The notes under the pieces are model-generated. The model saw only the letters and a program-made list of their open reading frames with translations. It was not told the DNA's origin and did no database searches. The translations under genes and the position numbers were made by a program. From an uncultured Mycoplasmatota bacterium (GTDB lineage: Bacteria; Bacillota_I; Bacilli_A; RF39; UBA660), in contig CAMGAM010000001.1 in NCBI GenBank assembly GCA_946007485.1, positions 1 through 37,537 of the forward strand: a DNA stretch of 37,537 bases, read 5' to 3'. Within the stretch, counting starts at the first letter, position 1. Every line of letters starts with the position of its first letter. Of this stretch, positions 26,390-36,015 are shown in pieces.

Positions 26390-26421
26390 TTTAAGTAATG
26401 AAAGAGATATGGGGTGATATA

Positions 26422-26928
26422 ATGAATAATAAAGGTTTTACTTTAGTAGAGTTATTGGCTACAGTAGTATTGTTAGCAATAATTATGGGAATTGTTTTAG
26501 TTAGCACAACTGGTGGTTTTAAAAAAAGTAAAGAAGATACGGAGAAATTGTTTATTGATACGATTGAAGATGCAATGGATATATATTTAGATAGTGATGC
26601 AAAAAATTTGAGTTATGAATATGAAGGTTGTACAATTGATAAGACTCATAAAATTGGAGTTAAGTTATATAAGGCTAATGATATAACATTTAATGGTGTA
26701 ATAAATTCAACATATCATCCACTTACGGAATCTGATTTGGTTAATCCAGCTAATGATAAGAAATGTAAGGCTACTGCGACAATATCAATATATAGAGATG
26801 AAGATTTTGTATATTATTATAAGATAGATAAGAATAATCTTGAATGCTTGACTAGCAGTGATGTTATAAGTAATTTACCTGAAAAATGTACTAAAAATGA
26901 TTTAGAAGTGGAGTGTACTAAATGTTAA
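26422..26928 (+). CDS. Type IV pilin / pseudopilin-like protein with prepilin (class III) signal
   Basis: MNNKG|FTLVELLATVVLLAIIMGIVLV: the G-F cleavage motif, Glu at +5, and a hydrophobic helix. The C-terminal globular part has 6 Cys. Start at ATG 26422 behind a GGGGTG SD. Confidence 0.75.
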   Translation: MNNKGFTLVELLATVVLLAIIMGIVLVSTTGGFKKSKEDTEKLFIDTIEDAMDIYLDSDAKNLSYEYEGCTIDKTHKIGVKLYKANDITFNGVINSTYHPLTESDLVNPANDKKCKATATISIYRDEDFVYYYKIDKNNLECLTSSDVISNLPEKCTKNDLEVECTKC

Positions 26929-28323: not shown

Positions 28324-29463
28324 ATGATGGAACAGGTAATTATAAACGATAAAGAGATAGTGGTAATGAATTTGGTTCATTATTTTGTAACTGAGAAAAA
28401 TTATAATCCAGTAGTAGTACATGGAATTAATGATGAGATATGGCTTGAGAATATGGATAGTGAATATAAATTAGTGAGAATAGTATCTAGATATATTCAT
28501 AATAATGAACAGTTAGATTTTAATAGATTTAGATCTAATCAGATAGTTAAAAAACTTAAAATGAAGACATTATCTTTTAAGATGAAGACACTTAGTATTT
28601 ATACCGATTTAGGTGATAATGTATCTGATATAGATAATGATAAAGAAAATAATTGTGAAGTATTTATTAAGAATATTAAGGATATTGGCGATAATCCACT
28701 GATATTAAAAGTATTTCCGGATATTATTGAGAAGACTCATCATGATGAGAAGGGATTAGAACTTTTATTTAAGATAACGGATGATATTAATGGAACTAAT
28801 GAAAGGAAGAATAAGAAAATGGAGAAAATATTTTCAACAAAAAAGCCAATAATTACATGGATATTGATAGGATTATGTATCATTATGTTTTTTATATCTG
28901 GTATGGGATATGATACATATAAGTTGGTTCAATTTGGAGCTAATTTTTCAAGATTAGTTAAAAATGGAGAAATATATAGACTTGTTAGTTATATGTTTTT
29001 ACATGCTGGGATTATGCATATTCTTCTTAATATGTATTCTTTATATATTGTAGGAACTAAGGTAGAAGACTTCTTTGGAAAATGGAAGTATTTACTAATA
29101 TATTTTATTAGTGGAATAAGTGGTGGTTTACTTTCGATAGGACTTAGTCAAGATACAATATCAGTTGGAGCAAGTGGAGCAATCTTTGGTTTATTTGGAG
29201 CACTTATATATTTTGGATATAGTTATCGTGGATATATTGGTTCAATGATTAGAAGTCAGATAATACCAATTGTGGTATATAATCTACTTATTGGATTCTT
29301 TATACCAGGAATTGATATGTGGGGACATGTCGGGGGATTAATAGGAGGAATACTTACTGCTAATGTGTTAGGAACAATTGAGAATAAAGATTATAAAATT
29401 AGTAATATTGTTCTTTTAGTAATATATTTTGCTTTTTTGGTATATTTAGGAATATATAGTTAG
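28324..29463 (+). CDS. Rhomboid-family intramembrane serine protease with ~170-aa cytoplasmic N-terminal domain
   Basis: Catalytic GASGAIFGLFGA (Ser) and HVGGLIGG (His), plus six or more TM helices. The start is ambiguous: GTG 28318, ATG 28324 or ATG 28327. Confidence 0.85.
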   Translation: MMEQVIINDKEIVVMNLVHYFVTEKNYNPVVVHGINDEIWLENMDSEYKLVRIVSRYIHNNEQLDFNRFRSNQIVKKLKMKTLSFKMKTLSIYTDLGDNVSDIDNDKENNCEVFIKNIKDIGDNPLILKVFPDIIEKTHHDEKGLELLFKITDDINGTNERKNKKMEKIFSTKKPIITWILIGLCIIMFFISGMGYDTYKLVQFGANFSRLVKNGEIYRLVSYMFLHAGIMHILLNMYSLYIVGTKVEDFFGKWKYLLIYFISGISGGLLSIGLSQDTISVGASGAIFGLFGALIYFGYSYRGYIGSMIRSQIIPIVVYNLLIGFFIPGIDMWGHVGGLIGGILTANVLGTIENKDYKISNIVLLVIYFAFLVYLGIYS

Positions 29464-29505
29464 AACTGTGATGAAATTTAATAGTTTCATTTAGTTCTTT
29501 TTTTG
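29462..29505 (+). terminator. Intrinsic terminator of the prepilin-to-rhomboid operon
   Basis: AGAACT..ATGAAA (29462-29476) pairs with TTTCAT..AGTTCT (29485-29498), followed by TTTTTTT. Confidence 0.7.
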
Positions 29506-29669
29506 ATATTTTATAGATAATAAATAATATTTTAAATATCTTATTATTGGTGTGATAATTTTAAATAGTTATATATTAATAGATATATAATTTAGCAATT
29601 AGTTGTTAAATATTTGAAACGGAGTTTAGATTAACTAAAAAGATAAATAAATACTTGTAGTTAATAAGT

Positions 29670-29698
29670 TTGACAAATAAAAATACCTTTGATATTAT
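29670..29698 (+). promoter_or_regulatory. sigma-A promoter for the small hydrophobic ORF transcript
   Basis: TTGACA (29670-29675), 17-nt spacer, TATTAT (29693-29698). Confidence 0.55.
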
Positions 29699-29763
29699 TT
29701 AGTAGAACATTTGATAGTTAGGTATTCCTTATTCTTAAAAAATAAAGAATGGGGGTGATATTT

Positions 29764-29850
29764 GTGGGTAAAAAAGATGTTCTTATCTTTTTCCAAAATT
29801 TCATAATCCTCCTTTTACTATTAATAATCATTATGTTGATTTTAATATAA
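29764..29850 (+). CDS. 28-aa hydrophobic peptide, candidate type I toxin (below the ORF-track size cutoff)
   Basis: SD GGGGGTGAT (29751-29759) lies 8 nt before GTG 29764. Product: MGKKDVLIFFQNFIILLLLLIIIMLILI, stop TAA. An in-frame ATG at 29749 without an SD would give 33 aa. It has its own promoter and terminator. Confidence 0.5.
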   Translation: MGKKDVLIFFQNFIILLLLLIIIMLILI

Positions 29851-29881
29851 AAGAAAATACCTAACATAAGTTTGTTAGGTA
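29849..29881 (-). terminator. Minus-strand intrinsic terminator (end of candidate antisense RNA)
   Basis: TACCTAAC (29858-29865) pairs with GTTAGGTA (29874-29881). On the minus strand it is followed by TTTTCTTTT (plus-strand 29849-29857). There is no T-run on the plus-strand side. Confidence 0.6.
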
Positions 29882-29957
29882 CGCCCAAATTATTAAGGAG
29901 TACTTGACACACCAATATCAAGTGTTCCTTTTTTATTATATGAAGTTTCCTTCATTT
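29850..29957 (-). ncRNA. Candidate ~105-nt antisense RNA convergent with the small ORF (putative type I antitoxin)
   Basis: It is bounded by the minus-strand promoter at 29964-29993 and the minus-strand terminator at 29849-29881. It is fully complementary to the 3' UTR and terminator of the plus-strand transcript. Confidence 0.4.
29897..29935 (+). terminator. Plus-strand intrinsic terminator of the small-ORF transcript
   Basis: GGAGTACTTGA (29897-29907) pairs with TCAAGTGTTCC (29918-29928). The stem is 11 bp including 2 G-U pairs and is followed by TTTTTT. Confidence 0.65.
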
Positions 29958-29963
29958 AAATAC

Positions 29964-29993
29964 ATTGTATCATAAGATTATTTGATTAGTCAA
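29964..29993 (-). promoter_or_regulatory. Extended -10 promoter on the minus strand
   Basis: On the minus strand: TTGACT (29993-29988), 18-nt spacer, TGaTACAAT (-10 at 29969-29964). Confidence 0.55.
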
Positions 29994-30181
29994 TTCAAAT
30001 TTTAATAAAAAAGGTCTACATTTGAGATTTTTTCCATCTTGTAATAATTATAGCGAATATATGATTTCTAAATTTAAGAATATTAAATTTGTTTTTAAAT
30101 ATTATAAATCTTGATGCCTAACAATGTGCATTTCTTTTTTTAAATACATGTTAGAGATATGAGAAATGTCTCTTTTTTTCG

Positions 30182-30210
30182 TTGACATATAGGGGTGTAA
30201 ATGATATAAT
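30182..30210 (+). promoter_or_regulatory. Perfect consensus sigma-A promoter of the giant FN3-like protein operon
   Basis: TTGACA (30182-30187), 17-nt spacer, TGaTATAAT (-10 at 30205-30210). Confidence 0.75.
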
Positions 30211-30255
30211 TTTTATAGTATGGTATAGTAGCTTTGATAGTAAGAGGTGAATAGA

Positions 30256-33200
30256 ATGAAGAAATTATTAGATGGAAAATTTTTATCAATATTAGCATTA
30301 AGCTTAGTCGTTTTGATTGGGTTAGTTTTTGGAGCATTTTATTTATTTGATGAAGATGAAGATGCTTTTGTAAAGAGCGGTTATGTTCTTAATCCACTTA
30401 GTGAGAAAGTAGAGAAATATTTCTTTAATGAAGATACAGGATATAGAACTAATTTATCTTCGATGGTTGAATTTAAAGATGTTGATGATAATGATGTGGT
30501 AGTTCTTAAAGATAGTTTTGTTCATTATATGGATGGTTCATTATCTTTTTTGAAGAACGGAGCAATTCTTGATTTAGATTCAGTTAATGGAACTGGAACG
30601 GTAGTGTTTTATAATGTTAGTAATAAATTAATGATTACTAAAGATAATGGATATGTAATTAAAAATAGCGGTGAAGATATTAAACTTAATAATTTTATGG
30701 GAAGAATTAGTGATAACAAGTATATAGTTGTAGGTAATGTTAAAGCTAAGATTCCAGGAAACGAAACACTTGTTTCGGGAGATTATTTTGAGTTAGTATA
30801 TGTTGAAGAAGGAATTGTCAATATAGAAAATAAGGATGTTAAATATCAAGTAACTGCTGATGAGGCAAAGATTTATGTTGGTAATTTAGTAATTGATTTA
30901 GGAGATAAAAAGATTAGTTTAAATGATACGGATATAATGTCAATTACTACAATTACAATTGATGGTGATGAGAATATAGAGATAATTCCTAAGGATGAAG
31001 AAAAGGGTGATGATGATACTTCAGGAAATGGTACTGATAATGAAGGTGGTAATGGCACTGGAGATGGAAACGGTGGTGCTGGTGGTGAAAATGGTGATGG
31101 TACTGGTATTGGAAATGGTGAAACTGGAGAAGGTGATGGAACTGGACAAATTACCAAACCAATAGAGAGTGTAATCGTTTCTTTAAAAGAAGCTTCAGTA
31201 GGAAGTACGAATGTATCATTAGTATTTGATATTATTAATGCAGCAGATGATGATATGTTTATGTTAAAAGTTACTAATTTAGATAGTGGTAGAACGATTG
31301 ATATGGTGGCTCAGGTGCTTCAAGATGAGCAAATAAATGTCAATTTATTATCACCAAAGACTAAGTATTTGTTTACAGTGATTAATGAAAAAGATGGGGG
31401 AAAATATTTTCAAAAGATATTTGAAACGAATGATTTTGGCATTAGTTTAGAGAGAACATATGCTACTTCTTCAGAACTTGGATTTAGAGTTAATGTAGAT
31501 AGCGATACGGATATTACTAATGCTAAATTATCGTTATATAAATTTAATGAAGAGACTCATCAAAATGAAATTGTTAAGATAAGTTATCAAGATGGTGAAG
31601 AAACTAAGTATATGGAGAAGACAGTATGGCTTAGTGATTTAGAAGATTCAAAAGAAGTGATTTTTGATGGACTTGATAGTAATACGATATATACAGCGGT
31701 TTTAGATGAATTTTCTTTGGTTTCTTCTAATTTTAAAGATGTTTATAATATTACGCTTACGACAATGACACTTAAGAAAACGCCATTGTTTAGTGAGATG
31801 GAAGCAAAGAAAGATACGGCATCTGGTAGTTTTAAGTTATCACTTGGAAATATAGATGATCCTGATAAGGCAATTACACAATATACTTATTTGATATATG
31901 AAAATGGAAATTCAAATGAGACAGTAATTGATCCAATAGTTAAGGGAAATGCATCACCAATTGAAGTAAAAATTGGGGATGGTGATAATGAACTTAAGAA
32001 TGATACGAATTATTTCTATAAGGTAGTAATTGAATACTATGACAATGAAAAATATGTAGAGTATACGACTGGTGATACGATTAATTTTGTAATGGGAAGT
32101 GATCCATATATTACGGTAGTTCCTAAGGAAGAATTAATTAGTTATGATAGTATTGGGGCAACAATCTATCTTACAGATAATAGTTGTTTAGTAAGTATTC
32201 CAAATCGTGAAAAATGTCCTACTGAAAGTAGTAGTACGGTAGTGACAGTAAAAAAGAATAGTGTTGGCGGAGAGGTAATTGTTTTCTCTAAAATAGTTGA
32301 TTTTGAAGTTGTCGATGGTGAGTTAAAGTATGATTTATTTGTAGATGGTCTTCAGGAAGGAACACAATATAGTATTGAGGTTAGTGCGATTTTAAATAAT
32401 GATGGTTTTGGGCAACGTGTAGAGATTATGCATACGGATGAATCTAAGAGAACTATTGCTACAAAAACACTATCTAGTTTTGTAGCAATATATCCAGCTG
32501 AAGATAAACTTTTAAGTAGTGCTAATCACGTAGTTAATCAAAGAGTAAAATTAGAAGCGTCAGAAAACAATACCGGTACTTTGACACCAGATGAGACAGC
32601 AAGTTCGATAAAAAAAGTAGTTATTAGTTTATATGAAGGAAGTCATGTAGAGGATATTAAAACGCAAGATCCTTTAGTAGCTCCAATGGTATTTACAAAT
32701 ACAGATAAAATTAATTTGAAAGAGATGTTTTATGATAATTATTACGAAATAACTACTGATGGAACATTTGGGCTTGATATTGATGCACTTAAAGCTTTGA
32801 ATAAGGATGGTAGACTTAGTCCTACTTATACAATTATGATAAGAGCTTATTATGATACAGATGAGATAAATGAAGTAAAGATAGAGAATAATGTTATGGT
32901 ATATACGATTCTTGAGTCATTACTTCTTGAAAATGTAGAAGAGCCATTAATTATTACAAAGCCAATTACGAATGAAGTTTCTGGATATATATTTGAAAAT
33001 CTTAAAGATAAGGGAACAATCGTAGGATATTCAGTTAATGCAGTATATGATCGTAAAGGATTAGTAGCAAATAATTTAACGCCTCAAAATATTAATATAT
33101 ATGTATATGATAGTAATCATAATAGAGTTAAATTTTATATAAAGGATGATAATGGTAATTTAGTACTAGTTGATAAAATTACGGAATCTATTAGTAGTTT

Positions 33201-36015
33201 AGAGATAGGTAATTATATTAATGAAGTATATATGGATTATGGTAGTGAATACGGCATAGTTGATGAAGTAATGAGACGTGGTAATAGTTATTATATTGGA
33301 TATGAAATAGAAGTTGAAACAGGCTCTGGAAATGTATTGTATCCATCTAATAAGAGTGATGATTCTCCATCAGATTATGGTGTTTATGAAAAATTGTCAT
33401 ATTCTATTAAAGAGACTCCTAATGTAAAAATGTATATTGCTAAATCTAGTAAAGATACGATTACTTATCGATATGAAATAATAGATCCAGATAAGGCAAT
33501 ATATAGAGAAAGTATAGACGATGATTATGGATTTTATTATCGAATAAATAATGGAGAAGAAAGAAAAATAAAGATAGAGTCAGTTGATGATTTGACATAT
33601 AAAGGGGATATAGTTTTAACTAATCTTAGTAACAATAATGTATATGCATTATATTATAAGAAGAATCTTAAGAAAAGTGGAATTTTTGAAGAAGATGTAG
33701 TTAATTATCTAGAGGGGGAAGATGATGGACTTAGAATCTTTGATGGATACTATGATGCGGTAAATGGAAATTATAATTTTAAATATGAGATTATTAATAA
33801 TCCACTTACTGATAATAAAGTTATTATTAAAATATTAGCATCAAATGATATGCTTGAAAGAATATTTAGTTATAGAATTAAATTTACTGATTCTAAAGGT
33901 AATACTTTAGATAAAGAAGTATGGAAGTTATCTAGTTGTTCATCTGATGATACTGAAGAAGCGAGATGTTTTTCAGTAGATTATATTGATTTAAAAAATG
34001 CTGGAATGAAATCCAATAAAGATAGTACAAATACTATTTCAGTAGAAGTAGAAGCATTATATGATAATGGACTTACAGGATATGATTATACTGTAGGTGA
34101 TGGATTAGATTATCCTTATATGATAATGCAAAATAATAACACAGATTCAGAACGTGGAAAATATGTCTCATTTAATAAAAATGGAAAAATAGTAGTTTGG
34201 GATGAAAGTTTAGATATATCTAAAGGATACTATACATATTCATTTAATAATGAGAAGAGAACATCATTATTTTATAAGAGTGCACTAAATACTAATTATA
34301 AAGATAACATTACTAATATTAGTTTATCTAGTATTGGATATACTTCTAATTATGGAACACTTAATCCAAAGATGATTTCAGTAGATAAGATGAAGTGCGA
34401 TAATAATACATTTTCATTTAGTAGTATTACTCCTAAGGTAAGTGTTGTTCAAAGAACAGGACTTGTTAATGGTTCAATTATGGGACTTACTTTGTCAGGG
34501 GTGGATTTAGCTGATATTAAGAATGAAGGTACAGATAGTAATCCAGCATATTATTTATATATAGATACTTGGGATAATGAAGATGATGCAATAAATAGTA
34601 ATAATTCATTGGTAGTTAGACCTAGACTTAAAGTAAGAATTGATAATAATGATCCAACTAAGATGATTGAAGCGGTTATTGATGGGGTAGCATCGATACC
34701 AAGTGATTATAGTTATTATTTCAATGTGTATGCTTATATGTATAAGAATGGTAATTATGAATTTGTTCAATTATTTGATGAGAGTATTAGAGATAAATAT
34801 GAGACTAAGACATATTCATTTAAAACAAAGAATGGAGAAAGTTTATATACTAGCAGAGAAGTAAGTTATCAAGTAGATGATACGGTATATGGTAATAGAG
34901 TTCTTAATACTAAGATTAATTTAACTAAATATCAAAATGCTTATCCATATAACTTTGATGTTATGTATATGATATGTGAAAGTAATGAATGTAATGTCGA
35001 TGAAGGATATATCTTTAAAAAAGAGATATCATCAGCAGATGTTGATAGTACAATTGTCAGTAAAGAAGATATAACTAGTTATGATCTAGAATATAATAAA
35101 AATTATTATATTTATATATATGCTGTGGCTTCATTGTATGAAAAAGATGAAAATGGAGAATATGTAAAAGGAGAACAGTATATTAATTTAGTTAATAGTA
35201 GGGATAAGTTGTTTAAACTTACAGCTCTTAGAGAACCATCTTTTGTAGTAACTAGAAAAGCTGGTTATGGTGATTCAGAATATTATATTGATTTTACAAT
35301 TAATGTAAATGATTTAGATAGAACGATAATTGGTGGAAAGTACAAAGTTAAATTAATTGATACGGATGGAAATGTAGTTGGTACTTTGAAAGAATTAGAT
35401 GAAGATGGTAATTATGTAGAGATAAGTAATTATGATAGTTATGAATTTGATGCATTAGTTCTTAATAAAAAGATACGAATTACAGGATTAAAAGCTGATA
35501 CCAAATATTCAATTGTGGTATATAGTGATGCTTATGTCAATAATTATAGTGAGGAGATACCGAAGGAAGATAGAACTTATGAAGTAAAAATGATGCATAC
35601 GATTTATACGACAGATAACTATGGAGTAACTTTTGGACATGATATATCTTATGTTATAACTGATAATAGTTATATTGCATTATTTAGAAGTGGTACAAAC
35701 TTTGATAATGTTGTTGGGGTTAATTACTCAGTTAGTTTGGATGATGAATTTAATCCAGGAGTTATTGTAACAGGTAGTGATATAATTGGAGATGAGCATA
35801 AATTTGAATTCAATGATGAATCAGGATATGGAATGTATGTTATAGCAAGAACAGATGGAGTAAAAAATACTTTAGGTAAATATTATTTAATTACACTTAG
35901 TTTTGAAGTGAAGGATCCTGATAATCCAGGAGAAACAATTATCTTAACAGCAGCTTATAATCCAAGATTTACAGATAGTGTAGCTTATGTTAAAGATATG
36001 GAAAATAATAGTTAA
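30256..36015 (+). CDS. Giant (1,919 aa) membrane-anchored surface protein with Gly/Asn/Thr-rich spacer and many FN3/Ig-like beta-rich modules
   Basis: SD AGAGGTGA precedes ATG 30256. TM anchor FLSILALSLVVLIGLVFGAFYLF. A ~230-aa juxtamembrane domain is followed by the spacer SGNGTDNEGGNGTGDGNGGAGGENGDGTGIGNGETGEGDGTG. About 1,600 aa of repeats follow, with recurring L.P.T.Y.F.V-type strands (LLSPKTKYLFTV, LDSNTIYTAV, LQEGTQYSIEV, LKADTKYSIVV). Confidence 0.75.
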   Translation: MKKLLDGKFLSILALSLVVLIGLVFGAFYLFDEDEDAFVKSGYVLNPLSEKVEKYFFNEDTGYRTNLSSMVEFKDVDDNDVVVLKDSFVHYMDGSLSFLKNGAILDLDSVNGTGTVVFYNVSNKLMITKDNGYVIKNSGEDIKLNNFMGRISDNKYIVVGNVKAKIPGNETLVSGDYFELVYVEEGIVNIENKDVKYQVTADEAKIYVGNLVIDLGDKKISLNDTDIMSITTITIDGDENIEIIPKDEEKGDDDTSGNGTDNEGGNGTGDGNGGAGGENGDGTGIGNGETGEGDGTGQITKPIESVIVSLKEASVGSTNVSLVFDIINAADDDMFMLKVTNLDSGRTIDMVAQVLQDEQINVNLLSPKTKYLFTVINEKDGGKYFQKIFETNDFGISLERTYATSSELGFRVNVDSDTDITNAKLSLYKFNEETHQNEIVKISYQDGEETKYMEKTVWLSDLEDSKEVIFDGLDSNTIYTAVLDEFSLVSSNFKDVYNITLTTMTLKKTPLFSEMEAKKDTASGSFKLSLGNIDDPDKAITQYTYLIYENGNSNETVIDPIVKGNASPIEVKIGDGDNELKNDTNYFYKVVIEYYDNEKYVEYTTGDTINFVMGSDPYITVVPKEELISYDSIGATIYLTDNSCLVSIPNREKCPTESSSTVVTVKKNSVGGEVIVFSKIVDFEVVDGELKYDLFVDGLQEGTQYSIEVSAILNNDGFGQRVEIMHTDESKRTIATKTLSSFVAIYPAEDKLLSSANHVVNQRVKLEASENNTGTLTPDETASSIKKVVISLYEGSHVEDIKTQDPLVAPMVFTNTDKINLKEMFYDNYYEITTDGTFGLDIDALKALNKDGRLSPTYTIMIRAYYDTDEINEVKIENNVMVYTILESLLLENVEEPLIITKPITNEVSGYIFENLKDKGTIVGYSVNAVYDRKGLVANNLTPQNINIYVYDSNHNRVKFYIKDDNGNLVLVDKITESISSLEIGNYINEVYMDYGSEYGIVDEVMRRGNSYYIGYEIEVETGSGNVLYPSNKSDDSPSDYGVYEKLSYSIKETPNVKMYIAKSSKDTITYRYEIIDPDKAIYRESIDDDYGFYYRINNGEERKIKIESVDDLTYKGDIVLTNLSNNNVYALYYKKNLKKSGIFEEDVVNYLEGEDDGLRIFDGYYDAVNGNYNFKYEIINNPLTDNKVIIKILASNDMLERIFSYRIKFTDSKGNTLDKEVWKLSSCSSDDTEEARCFSVDYIDLKNAGMKSNKDSTNTISVEVEALYDNGLTGYDYTVGDGLDYPYMIMQNNNTDSERGKYVSFNKNGKIVVWDESLDISKGYYTYSFNNEKRTSLFYKSALNTNYKDNITNISLSSIGYTSNYGTLNPKMISVDKMKCDNNTFSFSSITPKVSVVQRTGLVNGSIMGLTLSGVDLADIKNEGTDSNPAYYLYIDTWDNEDDAINSNNSLVVRPRLKVRIDNNDPTKMIEAVIDGVASIPSDYSYYFNVYAYMYKNGNYEFVQLFDESIRDKYETKTYSFKTKNGESLYTSREVSYQVDDTVYGNRVLNTKINLTKYQNAYPYNFDVMYMICESNECNVDEGYIFKKEISSADVDSTIVSKEDITSYDLEYNKNYYIYIYAVASLYEKDENGEYVKGEQYINLVNSRDKLFKLTALREPSFVVTRKAGYGDSEYYIDFTINVNDLDRTIIGGKYKVKLIDTDGNVVGTLKELDEDGNYVEISNYDSYEFDALVLNKKIRITGLKADTKYSIVVYSDAYVNNYSEEIPKEDRTYEVKMMHTIYTTDNYGVTFGHDISYVITDNSYIALFRSGTNFDNVVGVNYSVSLDDEFNPGVIVTGSDIIGDEHKFEFNDESGYGMYVIARTDGVKNTLGKYYLITLSFEVKDPDNPGETIILTAAYNPRFTDSVAYVKDMENNS

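Follow-up and report, generated by a model that had tools for sequence, protein, structure and literature searches.

A candidate type I toxin-antitoxin module with predicted convergent, 3'-overlapping RNAs in an uncultured gut Bacilli species

To our knowledge, toxin-antitoxin (TA) systems of type I are almost never annotated, and those known come chiefly from Proteobacteria in culture and a handful of model Firmicutes. Here, we describe a module of about 390 bp in a 37,537-nucleotide stretch of DNA from an uncultured Mycoplasmatota bacterium (contig CAMGAM010000001.1 of assembly GCA_946007485.1; this whole stretch is called the window), where it occupies an intergenic gap between a rhomboid-protease gene and an open reading frame (ORF) of 1922 aa. 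Judged from its sequence, the module is real, conserved and amplifiable, and we consider it probable (roughly 0.65) that this resident of the chromosome of a low-GC, uncultured species of gut Bacilli is a TA module of type I whose family has not been described before. An earlier note on this DNA had proposed a type I-like arrangement, and every prediction that could be tested in sequence and predicted structure held.

Architecture and predicted folding of the module

The gap runs from the end of the rhomboid-protease gene (29463) to the start of the 1922-aa ORF (30247) and measures 783 bp (29464-30246). The earlier note was right to place the module in an empty spacer and slightly overstated its size as 790 bp. 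The GC content of the gap is 21.7%, compared with 28% for the window. The elements of the module are as follows:

29613-29999, the module, which is also the repeat unit, about 390 bp, between two core genes
29670-29698, plus strand, toxin promoter TTGACA-17-TATTAT, with the -35 element at 29670-75 and the extended -10 element TGATATTAT at 29690-98
29705-29936, plus strand, predicted toxin mRNA, about 232 nt
29705-29730, plus strand, 5' leader clamp strand, 29705-16 pairing with 29916-27 (12 bp) and 29717-30 with 29895-29908 (14 bp)
29726-29755, plus strand, hairpin UCCUUAUUCUU / AAGAAUGGGGG that occludes the Shine-Dalgarno (SD) motif, 11 bp, -10.9 kcal/mol, stems invariant and loop variable
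29751-29759, plus strand, SD sequence GGGGGTGAT, invariant, with its GGGGG core 8 nt upstream of GTG 29764
29764-29850, plus strand, 28-codon ORF with a GTG start and a TAA stop (29848-50), encoding MGKKDVLIFFQNFIILLLLLIIIMLILI, 28 aa
29808-29812, plus strand, CCUCC inside the ORF, an optional second anti-SD
29895-29936, plus strand, terminator with a 13-bp stem (29895-29907/29918-29930, -12.3 kcal/mol) and a T-run at 29929-36
29964-29993, minus strand, antitoxin promoter TTGACT-18-TGATACAAT, with the -35 element at 29993-88 and the extended -10 element at 29972-64
29848-29957, minus strand, predicted antitoxin RNA, about 110 nt, three stem-loops
29848-29882, minus strand, antisense terminator with a hairpin at 29882-29857 (-13.0 kcal/mol) and a T-run at 29856-29848 that ends on the stop codon
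29883-29894, single-stranded linker between hairpins, the most variable part of the module: GCCCAAATTATT / AACAACACTATT / AACCCAATTAAT

On the peptide-coding strand, the promoter matches the consensus at 11 of 12 positions, carries the TG of an extended -10 element at 29690-91 and is invariant in all copies. Transcription is predicted to start near G29705, which gives a leader of 59 nt. The ORF could also be read from an alternative in-frame ATG at 29749, yielding 33 aa, but this start lacks an SD sequence. The 28-residue peptide has a short charged N-terminus (MGKKD) followed by a predicted C-terminal transmembrane helix, and its grand average of hydropathy (GRAVY) is 2.29. It contains a stretch in which 16 of 16 residues are hydrophobic, which is unique to it among the 268 six-frame ORFs of 20-80 aa in the window (next best, 14/16) and makes it the most hydrophobic of them. 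This exceeds the threshold of Fozo et al. (at least 10 of 15 residues hydrophobic; PMC2887945), and 28 aa lies below the 60 aa that bound the small hydrophobic peptides of type I systems. The terminator downstream was missed by our consensus scan for the sole reason that its loop is 10 nt long. Read on the other strand, it supplies the middle hairpin of the antisense RNA.

On the opposite strand, the promoter agrees with the consensus at 10 of 12 positions plus the TG, with an 18-nt spacer counted to TACAAT, and both hexamers and the TG are invariant, as is the terminator at 29882-29848. The antisense terminator sequence, read on the mRNA strand, is a hairpin in the 3' untranslated region (UTR). 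The predicted antisense RNA is fully complementary to about 88 nt of the mRNA 3' UTR; it stops at the stop codon, so that the body of the ORF is not overlapped. The elements that the earlier note had read from the letters (both promoters, a leader of about 60 nt, an SD sequence at optimal spacing from GTG 29764, the 28-codon hydrophobic ORF, the plus-strand terminator and a minus-strand terminator ending at the ORF stop) were all found again, and the overlap, which it had put at about 85 nt, comes to about 87-89 nt.

Both predicted RNAs fold far more stably than expected from their composition. The mRNA (29705-29940) has a minimum free energy (MFE) of -70.3 kcal/mol, compared with -37.4 +/- 4.5 kcal/mol for shuffled sequences (z = -7.27), and the three-hairpin antisense RNA (29957 to 29845) reaches -34.4 kcal/mol (z = -6.52); in each case none of the 200 shuffles equalled the native value. 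Formation of the mRNA:antisense duplex, which the earlier note had named as a check, is predicted with a free-energy change (ddG) of -82 kcal/mol.

The predicted mRNA fold includes a long-distance clamp. Both arms of the terminator element have their complement in the first 26 nt of the same mRNA, and the first 12 base pairs have a probability of about 1.0 in all seven distinct copies that were folded, while the second block appears in most MFE structures. All 26 pairs are retained in every copy. The ddG of pairing between leader and 3' UTR was -14.9 kcal/mol, compared with -3.4 +/- 2.0 kcal/mol for shuffles, a value reached by none of 500 shuffles and none of 500 random genomic 22-mers. Since the antisense RNA is the exact complement of this 3' element, the leader is in effect a same-sense copy of the antisense middle hairpin, from which it differs by four bases, all transitions that give G.U pairs, and by the absence of 7 loop nucleotides. 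We also considered a second clamp (29717-25 with 29857-65) with apparent U-A / U.G / C-G covariation; it has a low probability in most copies, where a local hairpin wins, and was replaced by the pairing of 29717-30 with 29895-29908.

The SD sequence is predicted to be occluded, its GGGGG being paired in all seven distinct copies folded, with an unpaired probability of only 0.04-0.13. Its partner differs from copy to copy and is either a UCCUU lying 15 nt upstream, the CCUCC in the ORF or a CCC in the linker, and at least one of the two downstream C-tracts is retained in every copy. The CCUCC, which the earlier note had placed at 29809-29813 and thought able to pair with the SD, lies at 29808-29812 and is indeed the predicted partner in several copies; it is absent from the four full copies that encode TNT peptide variants, and we dropped it as a universal anti-SD because it is not conserved among copies. 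When the 3' region is blocked in the prediction, the leader refolds, the SD hairpin forms and the unpaired probability of the GGGGG falls from 0.06 to 0.014.

Outside the overlap, a 9-nt match between an arm of the antisense terminator and leader positions 29717-25 was found by eye, and none was found at the SD. RNAduplex gave -35 kcal/mol for the leader against the antisense RNA, as a long gapped structure that is hard to interpret.

Conservation, copy number and distribution

For the comparison within the species, we assembled a set of 25 contigs (designated here by L numbers) through exact-protein look-up of the rhomboid protein (from ATG 28324) and its near-identical variants; their record names, which have the prefixes GAIO21 and MUNK18, suggest that they come from pig-gut faecal metagenomes. 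The module is present in every contig of this set that reaches far enough. The window, L052, L068 and L073 carry a single unit; L051, L054, L055 and L076 carry two tandem units with a period of 427-439 bp; and L053 has at least three, with a scaffold gap inside the array. As expected where assemblers meet a repeat, 17 of the 25 contigs (L056-L060, L066, L067, L070-L072, L074-L080) end inside the gap or the module, most of them just ahead of the repeat unit or within its first ~120 nt. The repeat, on this showing, is a routine breakpoint of short-read assemblies, and the copy number of the module may be under-estimated.

These contigs provided 16 full copies with nine distinct sequences, the first 11 copies forming alignment A1. 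Variation is distributed unevenly over the unit. The promoter elements have no variable column in 30, the stems 4 in 104 and the ORF 8 in 87, compared with 17 of 64 columns in unpaired transcribed non-coding sequence and 13 of 62 in the upstream spacer; the difference between stems and unpaired sequence is significant by Fisher's test both in the 16 copies (p = 4e-5) and in the first 11 (p = 7e-7). Of the four changes in stems, three are transitions that preserve pairing (U.G to C-G, A.C to G-C and A-U to G.U), and the fourth is an inserted C. Conservation sets in exactly at the predicted +1: L068 differs just upstream of G29705, and from that position onward its sequence is retained. This contig represents the most divergent lineage. 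It carries an A-to-G change at window position 29902 (L068:2218-2250, equivalent to window 29895-29927), which keeps the mRNA pairing in both terminator and clamp (A-U to G.U) and creates a C.A mismatch in the antisense hairpin, hinting that the mRNA fold is more constrained than the antisense fold.

The reading frame and the length of 28 codons are retained in all 16 copies, with no indel and no stop, although indels occur elsewhere in the unit (upstream, in the loop of the SD hairpin and in a terminator arm). Frame-breaking changes, for which the earlier note had asked close relatives to be examined, were thus not found among these copies. They encode five peptide variants, all of 28 aa: the reference, G2S, V6I, V6I combined with IILL to TNTF, and IILL to TNTI. 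The last two arise from a cluster in codons 14-17 (29804-29812), where five substitutions within 9 nt, all at first or second codon positions, replace IILL with TNTF or TNTI and also remove the CCUCC (GGAGG on the other strand). Diversifying selection, a recombination patch from an unseen paralogue or selection at the RNA level could account for it. In the arrays of L053 and L055, two copies are identical over leader plus ORF (0/146 differences) and differ at 9 of 87 positions of the overlap, all nine in loops or the linker.

The same alignments bear on whether the true gene lies on the minus strand, as a 67-aa ORF (29921-29718), as the 28-aa ORF inside it or as a 20-aa ORF at the antisense 5' end (29955-29893). 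We regard this as very improbable, even though the 67-aa frame is open in 10 of the 11 copies of A1 and a GGAGG (the complement of CCTCC) stands 3 nt before the internal ATG of the 28-aa ORF. The 67-aa frame is cut to 42 aa in L056a, and a loop indel shifts its C-terminus to give 75 aa in other copies. This ORF moreover contains the minus-strand terminator, so that transcription from the minus promoter would stop before most of it. The GGAGG is destroyed in the TNT-variant copies, and the 20-aa frame is lost with a single-C indel in L051a, L053a/b, L054a and L055a/b, and in L056a without the indel.

Equally remote is the idea that we are looking at a chance set of promoter- and terminator-like motifs in an AT-rich spacer, or at an inert relic of a mobile element. 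In its favour, the region shows no enrichment of promoter-like sites (21 against an expected 17.2), SD-like strings with one mismatch occur at the chance rate and no homologue was found outside the species. The two promoters of the module, however, rank 2nd and 4th of the 21, both with a TG. The idea is hard to square with the non-random pattern of conservation among copies, the folding z-scores of -7.3 and -6.5, a complementarity of leader and 3' UTR above all 1000 controls, or a duplicated unit that has precisely the boundaries of the module. Terminator-like sites number two, compared with 0.4 expected. Similarity to plasmids or phages is lacking, and no terminal inverted repeats were found around the module. 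An origin as a mobile element was set aside on this last ground, since solely an imperfect 23-nt direct repeat flanks it.

That repeat (29597-29619 / 30086-30108) is 83% identical, and tandem copies have a similar string where they join; unequal crossing-over could plausibly act on it.

Beyond the species, the rhomboid protein served as the synteny anchor with which we retrieved the orthologous locus of nine related species, in which this protein is 63-81% identical. In all nine, the orthologous spacer that separates the rhomboid gene from the giant ORF is without the module. In six species the spacer is no longer than about 100 bp, and in L001 it measures ~170 bp of unrelated sequence. Unrelated inserts occupy the same spacer in the other two, with a 354-aa ORF in L003 (5131-6379) and ORFs of 256, 128 and 77 aa in L006 (5131-6848). 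Given these short or unrelated spacers, the site is an insertion hot spot and the module lineage-specific.

Database searches returned no relatives. At gathering score, no Rfam family matched anywhere in the window, and at E <= 10 over 29400-30300 only unrelated models appeared, far below their gathering scores, including a chance ctRNA_pT181 match at E = 4.8. The earlier note had not recognised the peptide as any named toxin family, and our searches agree: four peptide variants found nothing in Pfam, NCBIfam or PADLOC (a Cation_ATPase_N match at E = 0.44 is chance), and a phmmer search with the 33-aa ORF gave 0 matches among 1.84 billion protein representatives. For the toxins of the Bacillus families TxpA/RatA, BsrG/SR4, BsrE/SR5, BsrH and YonT/SR6, no Pfam or NCBIfam match at E <= 10 went beyond chance, the presence of models for those families in the libraries being unchecked. 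With plasmids and phages as targets, distant-mode blastn and tblastn gave no match or only short, AT-rich ones due to chance; viral contigs, scanned twice with exact patterns, gave 0 matches; and a metagenome scan with the G-rich pattern GGGGGTGATNTTTGTGGGTAA gave 5 loci, all chance matches in GC-rich coding DNA.

Proposed mechanism, known type I systems and competing readings

In the mechanism that we infer, which takes in both transcripts, RNase III, a conformational switch and toxicity, a strong sigma-A-type promoter would drive an mRNA of about 232 nt for the 28-residue peptide. This primary transcript would be poorly translatable, with the SD always paired, either to the UCCUU upstream or to downstream C-rich tracts, and with the first 26 nt of the leader clamped onto the hairpin element at the 3' terminus of the same mRNA. 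The convergent promoter, with its extended -10 element, would produce the ~110-nt three-hairpin RNA, perfectly complementary to the 3' UTR, and pairing would probably begin at complementary hairpin loops or at the linker. A duplex of about 88 bp would serve as a substrate for RNase III, so that the main effect would be decay of the mRNA, as in txpA/RatA. Because leader and antisense RNA are rivals for one 3' sequence, binding of the antisense RNA should also release the leader so that the 11-bp SD hairpin can form; this would add translational repression, for which bsrG/SR4 offers a precedent (PMC3834814). Upon loss of the antisense RNA, insertion of the peptide into the membrane would follow and growth would stop.

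The layout is that of the Gram-positive 3'-overlap families, in which the antisense RNA lies on the 3' side (PMC8594479), and by its sequence the module belongs to none of the named families. The earlier note had compared it with txpA/RatA, bsrG/SR4 and bsrE/SR5. The convergent 3' overlap bears this out, but the antisense RNA spares the ORF, whereas T1TAdb describes it as overlapping the ORF in TxpA/RatA and BsrE/G/H and reports a 3'-UTR-only overlap solely for Fst/RNAII and SprA1 (PMC8594479). The duplexes of all three Bacillus systems undergo RNase III decay (PMC6562991).

One close parallel is bsrG/SR4 from the SPbeta prophage of Bacillus subtilis, which likewise has convergent RNAs pairing at their 3' ends, an SD held in a helix and a small transmembrane toxin, as predicted for the peptide here. 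In that system, experiments have shown that SR4, by binding at the 3' end, promotes decay initiated by RNase III and also tightens sequestration of the distant SD (PMC3834814, PMC6562991), and we propose a counterpart for the present module. The two share no peptide or RNA similarity. The antisense RNA of BsrE/G/H overlaps the ORF (PMC8594479) but here ends at the stop codon, the predicted switch here is the release of a 26-nt antitoxin-mimic leader, and the module lies in a spacer between core genes rather than in a prophage.

Among the other Gram-positive systems, txpA/RatA of Bacillus subtilis is also chromosomal with a convergent 3'-end overlap. TxpA, at 59 aa, is longer than the 28-aa peptide here, and the module gave no Rfam, Pfam or NCBIfam match. 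RNase III decay is the sole or main mechanism of txpA/RatA (PMC6562991), and the RatA overlap includes the ORF (PMC8594479), which is not the case here. In fst/RNAII (par of pAD1) and sprA1/SprA1as, the convergent overlap is confined to the 3' UTR, as in our module, and tandem or chromosomal copies are common; their functional interaction takes place outside the overlap, at the 5' translation-initiation region (PMC8594479), and the module, with only the 9-nt match to leader positions 29717-25 seen outside its overlap, appears to lack their 5' interaction repeats. The peptide has no Pfam or NCBIfam match to the Fst/Ldr or PepA1 types. In Fst a transmembrane segment precedes a charged C-terminus, while the charge of our peptide is N-terminal.

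Features of Gram-negative systems also recur. A non-translatable primary transcript, multiple anti-SDs and a long-distance 5'-3' interaction are hallmarks of type I toxin mRNAs (PMC6733600). In hok/Sok and aapA/IsoA, such an interaction locks the primary transcript, upstream and downstream anti-SDs act in succession, and regulation is module-specific among paralogous copies (PMC6733600); the predicted 12 + 14 bp clamp corresponds to their 5'-3' lock. Their antisense RNAs, by contrast, lie within the mRNA, on the 5' side or over the ORF (PMC8594479), and bind only after 3' processing (PMC6733600), whereas the antisense RNA here targets the leader-clamped 3' element. Their hosts are Proteobacteria and Epsilonproteobacteria, and they show no homology to the module. 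The E. coli systems zorO-orzO, ibs-sib and ldr-rdl resemble it in having a small hydrophobic ORF in tandem in one intergenic region; strains have it once, twice or not at all, and those without it have a short spacer there (PMC2887945). Tandem, strain-variable small hydrophobic intergenic ORFs were the very signature by which Fozo et al. discovered loci of the zorO/orzO type (PMC2887945). In these systems the small RNA is upstream and divergent or fully overlapping (PMC8594479), and they belong to another phylum without homology to our module.

We also put forward a more speculative proposal, which we think doubtful: that the module combines a hok/aapA-like lock with a Bacillus-type 3'-overlap antitoxin in a hybrid design not described for type I TA systems. 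The 26-nt leader would be a wobble-paired mimic of the antitoxin, leader and antitoxin would compete for the terminator element at the mRNA 3' end, binding of the antitoxin would lead both to duplex decay and to release of the leader anti-SD, which would shut the ribosome-binding site, and divergence of loops and linker would make tandem copies orthogonal.

Several observations weigh against the type I TA reading. The SD is predicted to be paired both with and without the antisense RNA, so the translational-switch part of the mechanism is weakly supported. No double-sided covariation, for which the earlier note had suggested a search, was found among the copies, which are too similar for it (one species-level lineage, at most about 10% divergence), and part of their conservation could stem from gene conversion or from duplication in the recent past. 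Searches beyond the species found no homologue anywhere. Conservation of the ORF does not exceed that of the RNA stems; among its 8 variable sites 7 are non-synonymous, and one cluster places the polar TNT[F/I] in mid-helix instead of IILL. Nor does the peptide have the polar C-terminal cluster, of charged or bulky residues, described by Fozo et al. for many type I toxins (PMC2887945).

The missing C-terminal cluster and the polar TNT substitutions, tolerated in the helix, would suit a non-toxic small membrane protein, one that acts as modulator of a membrane complex and has its expression adjusted by a cis-antisense small RNA, in a module neither addictive nor selfish. All the RNA and ORF features would be equally expected of such a protein. 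We consider this reading unlikely, while ranking it first among the alternatives, since tandem copies that vary by strain, absence in sister species and a place in an intergenic hot spot characterise type I TA loci and not housekeeping small proteins, and the multilayer repression of translation predicted here is a hallmark of toxin mRNAs (PMC6733600).

An ORF conserved no better than the stems and its mostly non-synonymous changes could instead mean that the locus produces two convergent non-coding small RNAs, the 28 codons being an untranslated by-product of T-rich, AT-rich sequence; in a genome of 28% GC, ORFs rich in I, L and F arise easily. Our doubts here are stronger. The SD sequence is invariant, ideally spaced and similar to those of neighbouring real genes, and a dedicated hairpin that sequesters it is sensible only if translation matters. 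Likewise, the absence of any stop or indel in 16 copies of a unit that tolerates indels elsewhere, and a 16/16 hydrophobic stretch found in no other of the 268 ORFs, speak for a translated peptide. The type I TA reading remains the one that we prefer.

Genomic setting and significance

Outside the module, only one part of the gap is conserved. In the orthologous gaps of the nine related species, the conserved portion consists solely of the terminator, promoter and leader that belong to the giant ORF (window ~30158-30240):

30153-30246, the only part of the gap conserved across the nine species, preceding the giant ORF
30153-30180, terminator hairpin before the giant ORF
30182-30210, giant-ORF promoter TTGACA-17-TATAAT, perfect and with a TG
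conserved short leader before the giant ORF, TATAGTATGG[T/C]ATAGTAGC

The giant ORF itself (30247-36015, 1922 aa) has a hydrophobic N-terminal segment and a low-complexity stretch rich in Gly, Asn and Asp, and its length varies among strains; the complete strain orthologues (1916 and 1919 aa) have no Pfam family on record. Other parts of the region vary as well. The prepilin-like (N_methyl) gene adjoining lspA (window 26398-26928) ranges from 161 to 219 aa across strains (L051-L080), and upstream of about 24750 the strains carry variable content, namely HisKA plus Smr, a reverse transcriptase (RVT_1) or a Fic gene.

New type I TA candidates are not rare. If our reading is true, this module would be a new toxin family from an uncultured and very AT-rich lineage of gut Bacilli, found by sequence logic alone and supported by metagenome data at the population level. 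At about 390 bp and naturally multi-copy, it would offer a testbed for communication between a 3'-overlapping antitoxin and a ribosome-binding site, and it would also suit the questions of whether an antitoxin-mimic leader acts as a built-in competitor and how tandem copies are insulated from one another.

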